From the IMG/VR virus record IMGVR_UViG_2657245588_000005: a DNA stretch of 44,413 nucleotides. One strand, given 5' to 3'. Of this stretch, positions 1,419-6,814 are shown piece after piece (positions within the stretch are counted from its first letter, which is position 1; each line of letters opens with the position of its first letter). The stretch is from a virus (Duplodnaviria; Heunggongvirae; Uroviricota; Caudoviricetes). The position numbers were made by a program, and so were the translations under genes. Below the pieces are notes generated by a model. It was not told where the DNA came from and ran no database searches. It saw nothing but the letters and a program-made list of their open reading frames with translations.

Positions 1419-3860
1419 TTAAAAATCAGCCTGACTCGGGATCAGTTTTTGCCAGATAACTGAAACGTATTTTGCCTGGTAACGGGCGTCATCAAGTGCA
1501 TTATGGCGCTCACCTTCGAATGGAATAGCCGTTCTGGCATCGAAGTCTATGGCTTTCCCCAGCTCAACGATTGTGCGTACATCGCGATCGTTGTAGTAAC
1601 GCCACGGGCAGGGGATCCCCTGCCGTTCGTATGAACGGCGCAAAATCGTGTTGTCGAAGTTGGCTCCATTTCCCCAGACCTGAACAAAAAATTCACCGGA
1701 GTTTTCGTCGATAAATTCCCGCAATTGTAACAGTGCATCATCTAACGGGATTTCATCGGTCATAATGGCAGATTGCGCTTCGCGTGATTGCTTAAGCCAC
1801 CATTTAATGGTGTCCCGATCAATGACTCCGCCAGCAGTTTCCAGATCGATAGTCTTACTAAATTCCGGTCCCATATCTCCGGTTTGCGGATCGAAAAATA
1901 TTGCACCTATTGAGATGATCGGGGCATCAGGATTTTTTCCCATGGTTTCAAGGTCGATCATTAGATGGTCACACGTCCTGCTGGTGGATGTGATTTCTTG
2001 ATGACCGTTCACCTTAATTGAGTGATCTGCCGTCTCGCCAGTTTCATTATCGCTATCGTGATGCTGATTGCCGCCAGTGTTCTCCTTGTGTGGATGTTCA
2101 GCGCCTTCCATTTCCTCCGGATCATCTTCCTGAACTTCAACCTGATACTCTTCATCGAATGTTTCCTGGTATGTTGCGTCGCCCATCACCGCGCCACAAT
2201 CAGGGCAGTTGCCGCCGCCGGTCTGACCGCAGGCGGTGCAGACTTTTTCCACTTCCTGTTGCGCCACTGGTTCGGATTGTTTCGTTTCTGGCTCGTTTTG
2301 TAACGCATTTGGGCTGTTTTGTTCCGCTTTTTGGTCGTTCCGTTCCGATTCATGCTGGTTCTGGTTCACAGAATCGCGAGTCTGGATCCCTTTGACCCAT
2401 TTCGGATCATTAGGGTCGCTAATCCCCTCAACAAATTCACCACGCGATACAGCAAGTAACTTATCGGCGTCAGGCTGGCTGATATTGGCTGCCTGCATAA
2501 TTTTGTTTACTTCGTCAGCGGTGACTTTTACTTGGTTAGCGGAACTCACCTGCGACTGAGCATCCAGCGACTGCGCGTTCTGGCCATGTTCAGTTGTATC
2601 CGGTTCCATTGTTTCAGTTGTTGCCTGTTCACCTGCCATTGCGTCAGATGGTTGTGGTTTTTCTTCTTCTGTTTCACGCTCAGTAACCACCTCGCGGTTA
2701 ATTTCTTCCAGGATATCTTTTTCCGGCGTATGCCGGGCAGCTGTGAGAGTTTCCTTGCTGGGGTTCTCGTGATCAGTTTCCGTCAAATAGGCGTTGATAT
2801 ACCCCTGAAGGCGTCCCGGGTAGTGATAAAATTCAGGGTGTGCGCTTCGGATAAGTGCAAAAATAGCGGCGCGGGAATAGTCCAGAATACCCGGGGTTGC
2901 ACGAAGTGCTGCGGACCATTCTTTGAACGGACTTTCTTTGTTCAGGACTACTTCTTTTGCGCGACGATAAACGCTGCCCGGAATTTCATAAATATTAAAA
3001 TCCATCGGAAGTGTGGCTGCTGCAATCTCCACATCCAGTGTGTCGAGGGTGTGTACTAAATTCGGATTGCGATCGGTTTTGTTCCCACCGCCAGCATTAG
3101 CACCGGAAGCCGTGCGGGTGATGCGTGAAACACGATTTCCTTTCATCCACTCTTTTGTCAGCAGACCCCGATCAGTGTAGTCAGCGTCTAGGTATGCTTC
3201 GAAAAAAGCAGTTATTAGTCCCAGGTCTGAATTACCAGGATTAGGGAAAACTTTGTCAGTGTCACGAACCAGTTTGTGGAGGTCGCGAATCTCCAGCGAG
3301 TCGAGCAGACTGGTTTTATGCGAAATAGCCAGGGCAGTAACAGCCGGTAGTTCTTCAGCCCGTGCAATGTGTAATGCCTGGAGTTCGTCGCGTGAAACGT
3401 GCGTTACTGGTTTTTCGCTGCCGTGTTGAGCAAGCCAACGAATGGGCAGTTCCTGACCGGAGACAGGCAGAAGCATGCTCTCCTCAATCTCAGTCATGGC
3501 TTCGCCGTTGATGTTGGTATTGTCAGTGCTGGCTGGTTTGTCCTGAACAGAGGGGGAAGGGCCGATAAATGTCATTGTGATGCCATCTTTCCCGCCTTTT
3601 TCATAGCGGTTGCAGAATTCAGTATCAAACACGCCTTCTGGCGGAAGGTCGTCAACAACGGGCAAATTGACGCGGACGGGTTTTTTAAAGTCGTCTTCAT
3701 CATAATCGTTGTCATCCATTGCGGTAATGCAGCGGGAGATTGCAACAGATAATTTTTTTGCTGTAGTCCAGTAAAAACCACCTTTAATTCCTAGGCGTTT
3801 TCTTACTTTGTCATTTTTTGCTTCGCAATATAGTGCAAATTCTTCTTTATCAGTGCTCAT
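1419..3860 (-). CDS. Large phage exonuclease with C-terminal DnaQ/DEDDh-like 3'-5' exonuclease domain (often annotated exodeoxyribonuclease VIII-like)
   Basis: 813 aa; C-terminal motifs 'MIDLETMG' (Exo I D-x-E), '[12 protein letters not shown]' (Exo II) and '[10 protein letters not shown]' (Exo III H-x4-D); acidic low-complexity middle and a CxxC-x-CPDCG zinc-ribbon-like motif; sits in the early-left operon where exo/recE normally lies. Confidence 0.7.
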
Positions 3861-4330: not shown

Positions 4331-4499
4331 TATCGCGCCCTCAACAATGAGTTTTGTGATGCGGTGCCTGGTGCCTCCAGGTGACGTTAACCAGTTAACA
4401 ATTAACGCCGGATACAGAGAATCCACCCATAACACTGTTTTTGGTTTTAACTGTTCCGCGTGCGCTTAGCCGCATTCACCGCATCACAAAATTCACTTT

Positions 4500-4557
4500 A
4501 AAAAGGGCGGCAGAGCAGTCACGGAGTAAAACTGATACCGCCAAACGTCACCAGAAA
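4500..4557 (-). ncRNA. dicF: DicF small RNA (about 53 nt plus U-tail; ftsZ-targeting sRNA of the dicB operon)
   Basis: Minus-strand sequence UUUCUGGUGACGUUUGGCGGUAUCAGUUUUACUCCGUGACUGCUCUGCCGCCC followed by UUUUU (GC stem plus U-run terminator); matches recalled DicF and lies where dicF sits in Qin, between ydfC and dicB. Confidence 0.65.
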
Positions 4558-4898
4558 ATTGATAACAGAGGGCGTTGCAGTGGGGTTGTCACTTAAGCGT
4601 ATGGTCAACCTGACAACCCGGTGTCCTCAACGGGGGAAGGAATAACCCCGCCATACTTACCGCCGCGCCATTTCGCGGATTGCCACAACCGGAAGCGCAC
4701 GGTCGACGAAAATTTAACGACAGGCTATCTATGAACCAGCTACCTCGCCGTGCGCTTTCGCGTTATGGTCTGACTTTTCAGGGAAATATCCTTTCAGTAA
4801 ACTGTCAGTGCCGGATGCTCACCCGTGTCCGGCGCACGCACTCCACCTCACCCGTGGAGAACTCCTTAATTACCAACCTTAGCTTCGTTGGTTATCTA

Positions 4899-5117
4899 TT
4901 AACGCGGGTATGTAATCATTCTGGCAATGCTTAATGCCGCTGCTTTTTCCAGCCTGGTGATATCCTGCTCCAGAGCGGACAGATTTTCAGCCTGCTTAGC
5001 CCTGGCTTCATTGGCCCATTTCAAATCCTGCGCTGCATTAATTTTCTGGCGCATCCACTCATAAAGTTCATCATCGGTATAGTCTGGCGCGATGATGACG
5101 GGTTCTCGTTTCTGCAT
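4899..5117 (-). CDS. ydfC: YdfC-like small protein of the dicB operon
   Basis: 72-aa ORF with AAGGAG RBS; assigned by position upstream of dicF-dicB as in Qin; function unknown. Confidence 0.5.
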   Translation of the reverse strand: MQKREPVIIAPDYTDDELYEWMRQKINAAQDLKWANEARAKQAENLSALEQDITRLEKAAALSIARMITYPR

Positions 5118-5188
5118 GTCGGCTCCTTGTGGTTAGCGTTGCCTGCTTTTAACCACGTCAGGCGAGGTGGTATCCTCTGAGGGGTCTG

Positions 5189-5545
5189 TTACTCGAGAGG
5201 AAATTGGTTATGAATACAATCAAGTTTTCTTGCCCAGAATGTGGTGGCGAAGTCTTTGACACATCCTTTAAACCGCAGGGCTCTGACAGTTTCGCGGGAG
5301 CCATCTGCAAAAATTGTGGTCACCTTGTAACTGAAGATGAGTCCTCGCAGTTTGATGACGAAATCGTTGACAATATCTTCGGTGCACTCACCAGAGACTT
5401 TCTGAAGTAAAGGCGCATACCGCTTAGTTACCGCTCTGATAATTCTTACCTGTCCGGCAATGGCGCTGATATCAATATAAAGCGCCATCGCTGTTTCTTT
5501 GCTGATCCCTGGACGCCTTCCATTCTGATGTTTGACTTCGCCCAC
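5189..5545 (-). CDS. Alternative hypothetical protein (118 aa) downstream of cI on the same strand (rex/sieB-equivalent position)
   Basis: GTG start at 5543-5545 with AGAGGA 7 nt upstream; same orientation as the repressor. Mutually exclusive with the plus-strand zinc-ribbon ORF; codon-position composition does not separate them. Confidence 0.3.
   Translation of the reverse strand: MGEVKHQNGRRPGISKETAMALYIDISAIAGQVRIIRAVTKRYAPLLQKVSGECTEDIVNDFVIKLRGLIFSYKVTTIFADGSRETVRALRFKGCVKDFATTFWARKLDCIHNQFPLE
5210..5410 (+). CDS. Small zinc-ribbon protein (CPECGG...CKNCGH) with acidic tail; hypothetical
   Basis: 66 aa from ATG 5210 with GAGAGG RBS at 5195-5200; two CxxC pairs about 20 residues apart; possible hairpin plus T-run downstream (5460-5500). 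Overlaps the alternative minus-strand ORF 5189..5545; only one is likely real. Confidence 0.35.
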   Translation: MNTIKFSCPECGGEVFDTSFKPQGSDSFAGAICKNCGHLVTEDESSQFDDEIVDNIFGALTRDFLK

Positions 5546-5841
5546 TGAGAAATCCTCTGTTTCCCCTTAACGCCGGGGTAGCGGAACAAAAACCTGCTGC
5601 ATAGTTATTAAAGTTGAACCCTGCCGTCATGTTCTTACGCCTCGGGCTGGCTACTTAACCCCTGACCACTGCCTGGTAACTCGAAGTATTGCCCTGCATT
5701 CTGTAGGATGGGGTGAGGGAATGAATGAAGTTTAGAAAAACGAACTTTTCAGGTCAATGTTTTTTTATCAAAACATTTTAAGCAGGCAGCTGTTAAGCCA
5801 TCACCACGATGGCATACAGTTAATCAAATAGATGAGGTTGG

Positions 5842-6480
5842 TTAAATATCTTGTTGAATTTTAAAGCATACGCCCAATATGCAAGATAGATCATCCAGCA
5901 TAATTGAAGGGTAGCGAGGATTCGTGGGGACTAAAAGAATATCCGGCCCTTCTATCTCCAGTTTACGAATGACAGGTGTTGTGGTCCCTTTGGGTAAGGC
6001 AAGGACAATATTTCCTGGTTGTACGGTTCGATCGGGATCAACAAAAACTGTTGAACCATTTGGGATGGAAACTCCCCCACCAGATGTTGACATACTGTCA
6101 CTCTCTAGAACAACTGCAAAGGTATTGACCGGGATTTCTCCGACAAGCTGCACACAAGAGGTTATTGAGGAATTTTTCATATAATCACTCCAGCTTGCTG
6201 CCTGCTGAAGTGATAGTAGCGGAACCGTTTTTATCGGCGGTAAAGATAGATCAAGCGAATCACCTGTATTTAACTCTCCTCCATTAAGAAGCCAATTTTC
6301 GTTTACTTTCAATATTTTTGCCAGTGAACTTATGTAACGCGAGGACGGCGCTCCTCCACCGTTCATCCATTGACTTACGGAGCCTTTTGATGCGCCAGTG
6401 CCATTGACAAGGTCTTTGCCTTTCAGGTTTAGCGCATGCATACGTTGGGTTATGCGTTCAGATATAGTTTGCTTGCTCAT
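5842..6480 (-). CDS. CI-like repressor (N-terminal HTH, C-terminal S24 LexA-type autopeptidase domain)
   Basis: 212 aa; C-terminal 'LESDSMS...' Ser motif and 'PVIRKLE' Lys consistent with a Ser-Lys dyad; divergent from the cro-like gene across a promoter/operator-like intergenic region. Confidence 0.85.
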   Translation of the reverse strand: MSKQTISERITQRMHALNLKGKDLVNGTGASKGSVSQWMNGGGAPSSRYISSLAKILKVNENWLLNGGELNTGDSLDLSLPPIKTVPLLSLQQAASWSDYMKNSSITSCVQLVGEIPVNTFAVVLESDSMSTSGGGVSIPNGSTVFVDPDRTVQPGNIVLALPKGTTTPVIRKLEIEGPDILLVPTNPRYPSIMLDDLSCILGVCFKIQQDI

Positions 6481-6571
6481 GTTTTGATTTTAAAACACAG
6501 ATGGTTTTGTTTCTTGACTTTCTTTGGTTTTGATTATTAAACTTTTGACGTTCAGTTTTATGGAGCGACTC

Positions 6572-6814
6572 ATGAAAAAATCAGAAGTATTAGGCTATTT
6601 TGGCGGAGTTGTTAAAACAGCCGCAGCTCTAGGAACGTCAAAAACCACAGTCAGCATGTGGGGGGAAGAGGTTCCGTGGAAATGGGCGTTGCTAATTCAG
6701 GCAGTCACTGCCGGGGCGCTCAAATATGAGTTACACATACCGACGGTTGTCATTCCCGGTTCTGATCATAATCCGCCTTCTAACCAAGGGGGGATTCATG
6801 AAAATCAAGCATGA
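6572..6814 (+). CDS. Cro/YdaS-like HTH regulator
   Basis: Starts 'MKKSEVLGYFGGVVKTAAALGTSKTTVSMW' (HTH); GGAG RBS 6 nt upstream of ATG 6572; divergent from the cI-like gene. Confidence 0.7.
   Translation: MKKSEVLGYFGGVVKTAAALGTSKTTVSMWGEEVPWKWALLIQAVTAGALKYELHIPTVVIPGSDHNPPSNQGGIHENQA

Follow-up and report, generated by a model that had tools for sequence, protein, structure and literature searches.

The window analysed here, the whole 44,413-nucleotide stretch of IMG/VR virus record IMGVR_UViG_2657245588_000005, is a Rac/Qin-like lambdoid prophage of Escherichia coli, in which two open reading frames (ORFs) lie on opposite strands within positions 5118 to 5841, next to the repressor gene. 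A plus-strand ORF for a 66-amino-acid (aa) C4 zinc-ribbon protein is wholly embedded in a minus-strand gene, with about 200 bp shared between them. Comparison with related loci suggests that this is probably a two-strand coding module in which both ORFs are selected protein genes. The original prediction had described the two ORFs as mutually exclusive, a premise not supported by the comparative test, which finds selection on both frames. It had also allowed that one frame only, or neither, might prove to be conserved; with 46 distinct sequences compared, a single gene on either strand is rejected as an explanation.

The plus ORF runs from ATG 5210 to TAA 5408-5410 and encodes two CxxC pairs, CPEC at residues 8-11 and CKNC at residues 33-36 (CxxC-x21-CxxC). 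The minus ORF extends over 118 aa from GTG 5545, preceded at 7 nt by AGAGGA, to a stop at 5189-5191. The sequence and the ORF translations bear out the original prediction on the positions and motifs of both ORFs, and also on its statement that the frames mirror each other: the register is exactly codon on codon, with minus codon 113-j sharing its three bases with plus codon j, and minus codon position 3 corresponding to plus codon position 1.

Public records contain either one or the other ORF. RefSeq, through the Prokaryotic Genome Annotation Pipeline (PGAP), annotates only the plus ORF on identical E. coli chromosomes, as an “ECs_2282 family putative zinc-binding protein” (WP_001092153.1), and the GenBank phage record ON470619 annotates only the minus ORF, which appears elsewhere as hypothetical proteins (e.g., URE76712.1 and WP_001240336.1). 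In strain RM9872, where the plus ORF carries a nonsense mutation, PGAP annotates the minus ORF, with 99 aa. Each database keeps one ORF and drops the other because annotation pipelines forbid fully embedded antisense genes. The plus product is a member of NCBIfam NF047912 (ECs_2282_CxxC; 57.3 bits, E=1e-15, curated cut-off 37), with residues 4-59 aligned to profile positions 1-56 of 60 and both CxxC pairs covered; the entry gives no function. The minus product matches PHROG 21318, its residues 20-118 aligning to profile positions 1-99 of 99 (E=8.8e-67). This family derives from gene calls alone, has no function assigned and is tiny, with 11 representatives among 1.84 billion cluster representatives in a profile search with the alignment. 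A literature search for ECs2282, the WP accessions and NF047912 found no paper mentioning them, neither RefSeq nor the searchable literature was found to mention the embedding of NF047912 members in a second conserved ORF, and we found no record or paper treating the zinc-ribbon ORF and the minus ORF as a pair. Each ORF already belongs to a catalogued, uncharacterised family.

The comparison is based on 46 distinct sequences of 279 nt from about 12 lineages of Escherichia, Citrobacter, Klebsiella, Enterobacter and metagenomes. Diverged copies from Citrobacter, Klebsiella and Enterobacter (57-70% identity) were obtained by protein searches and compared at the DNA level, 19 viral contigs found with a DNA pattern were added, and a profile search contributed remote members at seven further loci, where the minus protein is 35-40% identical. 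Alleles within E. coli were counted over 94 loci. The region is common in this species: at least 823 complete E. coli genomes hold most of the 724 bp, and positions 4400-6600 of the window are 100% identical to many E. coli chromosomes and to phage vB_EcoS-813R8. Every diverged locus contains both ORFs, that is, a 66-codon plus ORF and a minus ORF of 93 to 126 codons from the equivalent of Met20, and the two occur together in at least four genera, even where the identity of the minus protein has fallen to about 35%. The pairing is broken only by two nonsense alleles of the plus ORF, both in E. coli. We did not find either family without the other, as every profile-search member traceable to DNA carries the zinc-ribbon ORF, and a scan of the GTDB species representatives for unpaired members returned two spurious loci only.

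The minus frame can be assessed separately where the plus ORF is absent. In the non-overlapped minus codons 20-45 (5411-5488), transversions at codon position 3 number 21 in 28.5 opportunities when synonymous and 1 in 23.5 when non-synonymous (p=3.4e-5), a contrast seen in the minus frame only and absent from the other five frames, including the mirror plus frame. This comparison indicates that the minus frame is under purifying selection in its non-overlapped part. The frame is uninterrupted in 46/46 distinct sequences and free of indels from the conserved Met onward, the alignment collapses just upstream of that Met, and in far homologues the gene begins at the corresponding Met, preceded by a GGAG-type Shine-Dalgarno site. 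The 19-codon extension from the GTG is not alignable outside E. coli, has a distribution of changes over codon positions 1/2/3 that is not coding-like (7/2/4), and is broken in nine loci by a 1-nt deletion near 5537 that leaves the ORF from ATG 5488 untouched. The conservative call for the minus gene is therefore 5189-5488.

For the 198 nt of overlap, substitutions were counted by parsimony on a neighbour-joining tree. The original prediction had stated that codon-position composition cannot separate mirror frames, and the counts are indeed ambiguous, with 44/20/60 changes at plus positions 1/2/3; class-wise rates and simulations were needed for this reason. Transversions per opportunity amount to 0.47 when silent in the plus frame only, 0.30 when silent in the minus frame only and 0.18-0.44 when replacing in both. 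Those silent in both frames occur at a rate of 1.5, and the neutral reference, taken from minus-synonymous sites outside the overlap, is 1.33, so that changes silent in just one frame fall about 3-fold below the neutral rate. The depletion spans the whole overlap and is not limited to one block; a block of 27 nt (5315-5341) hardly varies at any of the three codon positions. The changes that have been accepted also follow the second protein: plus-silent changes tend to replace residues of the minus protein conservatively (P=0.0085), and minus-silent changes those of the plus protein (P=0.0005), each site being counted once. Simulations were run on the same tree, with the neutral rate calibrated on non-overlapped synonymous sites, selection on one frame only and the observed amino acids allowed at each site (300 runs per model).

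Several observations weigh against two selected genes. The strict third-position transversion test within the overlap shows no contrast between synonymous and non-synonymous changes for the minus frame (p=0.74), and the equivalent plus-frame contrast is weak (p=0.023) and vanishes when the remote lineages are included (0.47 vs 0.44). Null results in these tests would be expected where one or other of the frames removes nearly every change; because they are null, the argument for double constraint rests on the neutral reference, which is drawn from 26 neighbouring codons and six doubly silent sites. The events were counted by parsimony on a neighbour-joining tree built from 279 nt, and recombination among prophages could distort these counts. 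In two E. coli lineages the zinc-ribbon gene has acquired a nonsense mutation (E14* in about 20 of the 94 loci, E44* in one), so the gene is dispensable there. The -10 element proposed below for the plus strand lacks a good -35, and a consensus scan of 5118-5209 found no usable plus-strand promoter. The AlphaFold models are of moderate to low confidence, with a predicted local distance difference test (pLDDT) score of 68 for the minus protein and 59 for the zinc ribbon, and a Foldseek search of the minus-protein model against viral structures gave no match at E<=0.001; no match of fold or profile points to a function for either product.

The rival explanations differ in which part of this pattern they would explain. 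Both ORFs might be translated, with the minus protein acting through its N-terminal 25-30 residues and the overlap, not selected as protein, kept open only for ribosome cover of the early-left mRNA (to prevent Rho-dependent polarity on ydfC-DicF-dicB, or to permit translational coupling). It would fit this idea that the clear minus signature is confined to the non-overlapped codons, that the third-position test is null in the overlap, and that the C-terminal end point of the minus ORF differs between lineages by a few codons. However, plus-synonymous transversions are depleted beyond those that would create stops (24 against 40-56 expected), the accepted plus-synonymous changes are conservative in the minus protein, the nearly invariant block leaves all three codon positions almost unchanged, and the best part of the AlphaFold model (pLDDT 70-80, a beta-hairpin and the last helix) is the overlapped part. 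We regard this explanation as quite improbable.

The view taken by RefSeq/PGAP would be that the zinc-ribbon gene alone is real and that the minus ORF is a mirror-frame “shadow” ORF, which would tend to remain open because its stops face the rare sense codons TTA, CTA and TCA. Mirror-frame ORFs are a known annotation artefact, discussed in 10.1101/724807. Within the overlap, the plus frame has the stronger signature, with a ratio of non-synonymous to synonymous changes (N/S) of 0.29 vs 0.69 for the minus frame, to which the null minus third-position test can be added, and the minus product has no family model except for the PHROG built from gene calls. The simulations with selection on the plus frame only nevertheless left the minus frame open in all tips in 0/300 runs, with stops in a mean of 25-29 tips vs 0 observed, and gave 40-56 plus-silent transversions where 24 were observed, making these 2-3 fold too rare. 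Given the codon usage of E. coli, all nine lineages would lack TTA, CTA and TCA in the plus gene with a probability of 5.5e-7, and the Leu codons of the zinc ribbon are almost only CTT and CTC, not the usual CTG. The minus frame stays open in all lineages to about 35% identity, its start Met and Shine-Dalgarno site are conserved, the purifying selection described above acts on it where the plus ORF is absent, and even the accepted plus-synonymous transitions are conservative in the minus protein. A plus gene alone is accordingly a decidedly improbable explanation.

Conversely, the GenBank phage records and PHROG 21318 correspond to the view that the minus gene alone is real and that the zinc-ribbon ORF is a chance antisense ORF. 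In favour of this view, the plus ORF has two independent nonsense alleles, one of them common, against none in the minus ORF; the minus ORF always points the same way as the operon that it lies in, after the leftward promoter pL as well as after cro in Citrobacter and Klebsiella; and no strong plus-strand promoter was found, in addition to the low pLDDT of the zinc-ribbon model. A chance ORF would, however, leave the coding features of the plus frame unexplained. The predicted zinc ligands C8, C11, C33 and C36, in two CPxCG-like knuckles, are invariant in 46/46 distinct sequences and three further lineages. Their codons are only TGT or TGC, and the facing minus codons, Thr or Ala written as ACA or GCA only, use the one third base in four that keeps Cys, while the codon of Ser45 alternates between TCC, AGC and TCG. 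The plus start and stop have fixed positions; the stop at codon 67 varies between TAA, TAG and TGA, where the minus frame reads Leu, Leu and Ser, so that this variation costs the minus protein a change from Leu to Ser. A purine-rich AGGA or GAGG motif precedes the zinc-ribbon ATG by 7-10 nt in all lineages, and in Citrobacter and Klebsiella both the ATG and this Shine-Dalgarno motif are kept beyond the end of the minus ORF. In simulations with selection on the minus frame only, the four Cys were kept everywhere in 0/300 runs, 37-41 tips acquired plus-frame stops vs 4 sequences (2 events) observed, and 55-74 minus-silent transversions were expected vs 20 observed, which makes these 3-4 fold too rare; the NF047912 match is also above its cut-off. 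We consider a minus gene alone very unlikely.

It is highly unlikely that only one ORF is coding and that its silent sites owe their extra constraint to the region acting as nucleic acid (as an RNA structure, a site bound by protein or a linker for recombination), for which the conserved non-coding elements nearby (5460-5488, 5141-5176 and 5560-5715) and the block conserved at every position might speak, because the depletion extends over the entire overlap with doubly silent sites at the neutral rate, the accepted changes follow amino-acid similarity in the second frame, the open frame, Cys codons and start and stop conservation of the second ORF would be left unexplained, and there is no Rfam match.

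The reading of two selected genes is accompanied by an ordered set of signals on both strands (Table 1). On the minus strand, the genes follow each other leftwards as repressor-like gene, spacer, contested pair, ydfC, DicF, dicB, ydfD, a recE-like exonuclease gene, xis and int. The repressor gene, with helix-turn-helix (HTH) and peptidase domains, confirms the cI-like gene that had been placed beside the pair.

Table 1. Coordinates of the two ORFs, their predicted signals and the neighbouring genes in the window
Feature	Position	Strand	Details
C4 zinc-ribbon gene, 66 aa (ECs_2282 family)	5210-5410, stop included	+	ORF, NF047912, PGAP WP_001092153.1
Conserved 99-aa core of the minus gene	5189-5488, stop included	-	ATG 5486-5488, Met20 of the 118-aa ORF; PHROG 21318
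Optional 19-codon N-terminal extension from GTG 5545	5489-5545	-	AGAGGA Shine-Dalgarno site; E. coli lineage only
Conserved element upstream of the zinc-ribbon gene	5141-5176	+	Interleaved inverted repeats GCCTG..ACCAC..CAGGC..GGTGG; pseudoknot-like
Shine-Dalgarno site of the zinc-ribbon gene	5195-5200	+	GAGAGG, 9 nt before ATG
Terminator-like hairpin	5460-5503	+	Arms ATGGCGCT 5460-5467 and AGCGCCAT 5481-5488, then T-rich 5489-5503
Spacer between the repressor gene and the contested pair	5546-5841
Conserved 5' leader of the early-left transcript, 155 nt	5560-5715	-	Common to lambdoid prophages of many immunity types
pL-like early-left promoter (predicted)	5729-5757	-	-35 TTGACC 5757-5752, 17-nt spacer, -10 TAAACT 5734-5729
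Operator OL (predicted)	5758-5775		Palindrome TGTTTT-N6-AAAACA
CI/LexA-like repressor gene	5842-6480	-	HTH_3 and Peptidase_S24; DicA-like N-terminus
cro-like gene	from 6573	+	Divergent from the repressor gene
ydfC, cistron after the pair in the early-left operon	4899-5117	-	PGAP annotation; PHROG 1744
DicF small RNA (sRNA)	4505-4556		Rfam 76.7 bits

The exact operator palindrome occurs at two places only in the window, in the spacer and at 6480-6497 beside the divergent cro-like gene, with degenerate copies at 6502-6543. The pL-like promoter scores 9/12 in a consensus scan and abuts the palindrome, the two together occupying 5729-5776. These predicted sites agree with the original prediction, which had assigned the early-left promoter and operators to the spacer; its description of the whole spacer as AT-rich holds for 5723-5841 (35% G+C) and fails for 5546-5722 (51% G+C). 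In lambda, rex lies between cI and OL. Here, no gene stands between the repressor gene and the predicted OL/pL, so that there is no slot equivalent to rex, and the placement of the pair at a rex/sieB-like position next to the repressor has to be given up as regards rex. The minus gene would instead be the first cistron of the early-left operon, because it is downstream of OL/pL and of the conserved leader, and for the same reason it cannot be kept as cargo of the repressor operon, as had been suggested. This first-cistron slot is the ydfA/ydaG position of Qin and Rac. The suggestion of a zinc-ribbon gene convergent into the early-left operon matches the layout, which is that of sieB in Rac.

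The position of the module is not the same in all hosts. In Citrobacter amalonaticus and Klebsiella variicola it directly follows cro in the rightward (replication) operon, with the minus ORF co-directional (3001-3285 in both loci, L090 and L091). In an Enterobacter prophage, the zinc-ribbon gene is directly preceded, on its own strand, by a Pfam-SieB gene; when the same-strand genes at this place were inspected for hints of function, this was the one Pfam SieB, the others being PHROGs with no function assigned. Related prophages hold HigB/HigA-like and RelE/RelB toxin-antitoxin pairs between the repressor gene and the leader, which is the true rex-like slot (L003/L004 2207-2871, L005 2224-2695, L125 854-1333).

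Of 5,426 complete E. coli genomes, about 4,000 contain a match to the leader, with up to 8 places per genome for the whole query, and its conservation in other immunity types begins just downstream of the pL-like promoter. In K-12 Rac it is found between racR and ydaG, and elsewhere upstream of ydfA/DUF1391 genes. Searches for a structured RNA gave no Rfam family, a minimum free energy z-score of +0.8 for 177 nt, and a single compensatory pair in an RNAalifold comparison of seven diverged copies. No boxA or boxB was recognised by eye in 5546-5722, no systematic search being made, and there is no significant fold in this segment. Read by eye, six of the seven copies have an upstream ORF of 18-20 codons with a conserved TAA in GGCGTTAAGGGG, which we did not adopt because it is frameshifted in this window. 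A 52-aa minus-strand ORF (5472-5630), which starts at the leader ATG 5630 and overlaps the start of the minus gene out of frame, is probably not a gene; it appears to have arisen by a window-specific frameshift in the upstream ORF of 18-20 codons.

The plus-strand element at 5141-5176 ends in an extended -10-like TGGTATCCT (5168-5176). It is shared across genera, including lineages in which the coding DNA is down to about 60% identity with the window, and one lineage, L117, has compensatory changes (GCCGGG/CCCGGC); a further copy is located at 1501-1537 of L122. The same element and the same AACCAAGAAGGA ribosome-binding site precede a different plus-strand 66-aa gene in the BL21(DE3) prophage, and 5140-5176 is 100% identical in many E. 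coli genomes that have no zinc-ribbon gene. The element might serve as a promoter that includes a site for a regulator; alternatively, it might function as RNA within the early-left transcript.

About 50 nt past the zinc-ribbon stop, a hairpin with an 8-bp stem, a 13-nt loop and an interrupted T-tract was found, which the consensus terminator scan missed because of the loop of 13 nt. The stem is kept in all lineages, with compensatory changes in L121 (GATGCT/AGCATC) and L117 (AACGCT/AGCGTT), and 81% of the hairpin cells are paired, vs 25-42% with the partner shifted. One stem pair is G-T in 15 distinct sequences, which reads as G.U in the plus-strand RNA and as A.C in the minus-strand RNA. The stem is backed by this covariation, and together with the T-tract it would fit an intrinsic terminator for a plus-strand unit. 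As the 3' arm of the hairpin is the complement of the minus gene start codon, the plus unit of element, Shine-Dalgarno site, ORF and hairpin reaches from just past the minus stop codon to the minus start codon. It spans the minus cistron from stop to start, and the zinc-ribbon mRNA would therefore be a full-length antisense RNA that includes the minus ribosome-binding site.

This arrangement suggests how the two genes might be used, and we infer the promoter activity, expression timing, antisense control and protein roles in the following scheme. In the repressed prophage, with pL off, the plus unit would be expressed like other opposite-strand morons at this place, such as sieB in Rac, and the zinc-ribbon transcript and convergent transcription would hold down leaky expression of the first early-left gene. 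After derepression, strong transcription from pL would override the plus unit and the minus protein would be made, so that the two products would be expressed in alternation. Our confidence in antisense control and alternation is considerably less than in the selection on both genes.

A further step would be to regard the pair as an ancient, obligate sense/antisense couple that has co-evolved residue by residue and works as a functional pair, for example as a toggle between lysogeny and lytic growth or in a toxin-antidote-like manner, with the zinc-ribbon mRNA silencing the early-left gene in cis. The two proteins, which are complementary in hydropathy, might also bind each other. We consider this possibility unlikely. 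If it is true, the pair would be among the best comparative cases of a long-lived antisense overlapping pair in a bacterial virus, hidden by annotation rules in hundreds of E. coli genomes.

Regarding the products, searches of both sequences and their alignments against Pfam, NCBIfam, PHROGs and PADLOC returned only their two own families and generic zinc-ribbon noise, and profile searches of the PDB gave no match below E=0.3 for either product. The zinc-ribbon protein, which has an acidic tail, is probably a small factor that binds nucleic acid or other proteins. The model of the minus protein suggests, with moderate confidence, a helix-helix-beta-hairpin-helix fold with no detectable relatives. 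Neither product matches the SieB domain (Pfam PF14163) in Pfam, NCBIfam, PHROGs or PADLOC, and neither is similar to the Rex or N families in the Pfam, NCBIfam and PHROGs searches. As for marks of an N-type antiterminator, there was no family match, and the conserved minus core has no obvious arginine-rich motif.

The nonsense alleles provide natural frame-specific knock-outs of the zinc-ribbon gene (loci L006, L068, L072 and L088). E14* is a change from GAA to TAA at 5249, found among others in O145 strain RM9872, which leaves the minus ORF intact with a change from Phe to Leu, and the codon-44 allele at 5339, present in one locus, leaves the minus ORF intact as well.

Bacteria and phages offer few antisense protein-coding pairs with good support, and these are disputed; the described ones rely mainly on the expression of young ORFs. 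In E. coli O157:H7, the antisense embedded genes described are taxonomically young ORFs that overprint old genes, and nog1/citC and asa are further examples of antisense embedded genes. As in the pair described here, a coding ORF of the O157:H7 type lies wholly antisense inside another coding gene and is excluded by the annotation rule. Of these, laoB, pop/ompA and the three genes of PMC9927249 are reported from expression data, and the survey of embedded antisense genes in E. coli left phages out. The evidence here is of the opposite type: the pair is known from its sequence, as two small families found only together across at least four genera, each with a signature of selection.

In its position and orientation, the zinc-ribbon gene resembles sieB of Rac, which is also convergent to pL and located just past the first small early-left genes. 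The likeness does not extend to the sequence or the domain, and sieB abuts its neighbours, whereas the zinc-ribbon gene is embedded in one. In P22, sieB is under the control of a cis-antisense RNA, sas (PMC12197685). The antisense partner of sieB there is a non-coding RNA, whereas the partner here is a second protein gene.

Lambda N is the first gene of pL, and rexAB is cargo of the repressor operon. The minus gene shares with N the promoter-proximal slot of the leftward operon, and with rexAB the strand of the repressor gene and the place next to it; unlike in lambda, the first-cistron slot in related prophages holds ydfA (DUF1391) or ydaG. Lambda OOP/cII and type I toxin-antitoxin loci are under cis-antisense control by RNAs that encode no conserved protein. 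The proposed plus unit is comparable as a short, convergent, hairpin-ended transcript complementary to the mRNA of a neighbour, which is a mechanistic analogy only, and it would also cover the ribosome-binding site of the minus mRNA. Unlike these RNAs, the plus transcript would encode a conserved protein. The layout suggests a simple device in which the mRNA of a moron doubles as the antisense silencer of the first early-left gene, and such layouts could exist elsewhere in temperate phages. As the pair is short (200 bp) and lies in the switch region of a genetically tractable prophage, frame-specific tests of both products are feasible.

Two minor observations concern the surrounding genes. 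In RefSeq/PGAP the repressor is annotated as a 113-aa “LexA family protein” (5842-6180) with the peptidase domain only; the intact repressor ORF has 212 aa including the DicA-like HTH domain, and a GenBank phage record places its start at 6441. Just downstream of DicF and upstream of dicB, the minus strand at 4353-4493 gives a sub-threshold Rfam match to the sRNA STnc100 (38.8 bits vs a gathering score of 47, E=3.6e-6).

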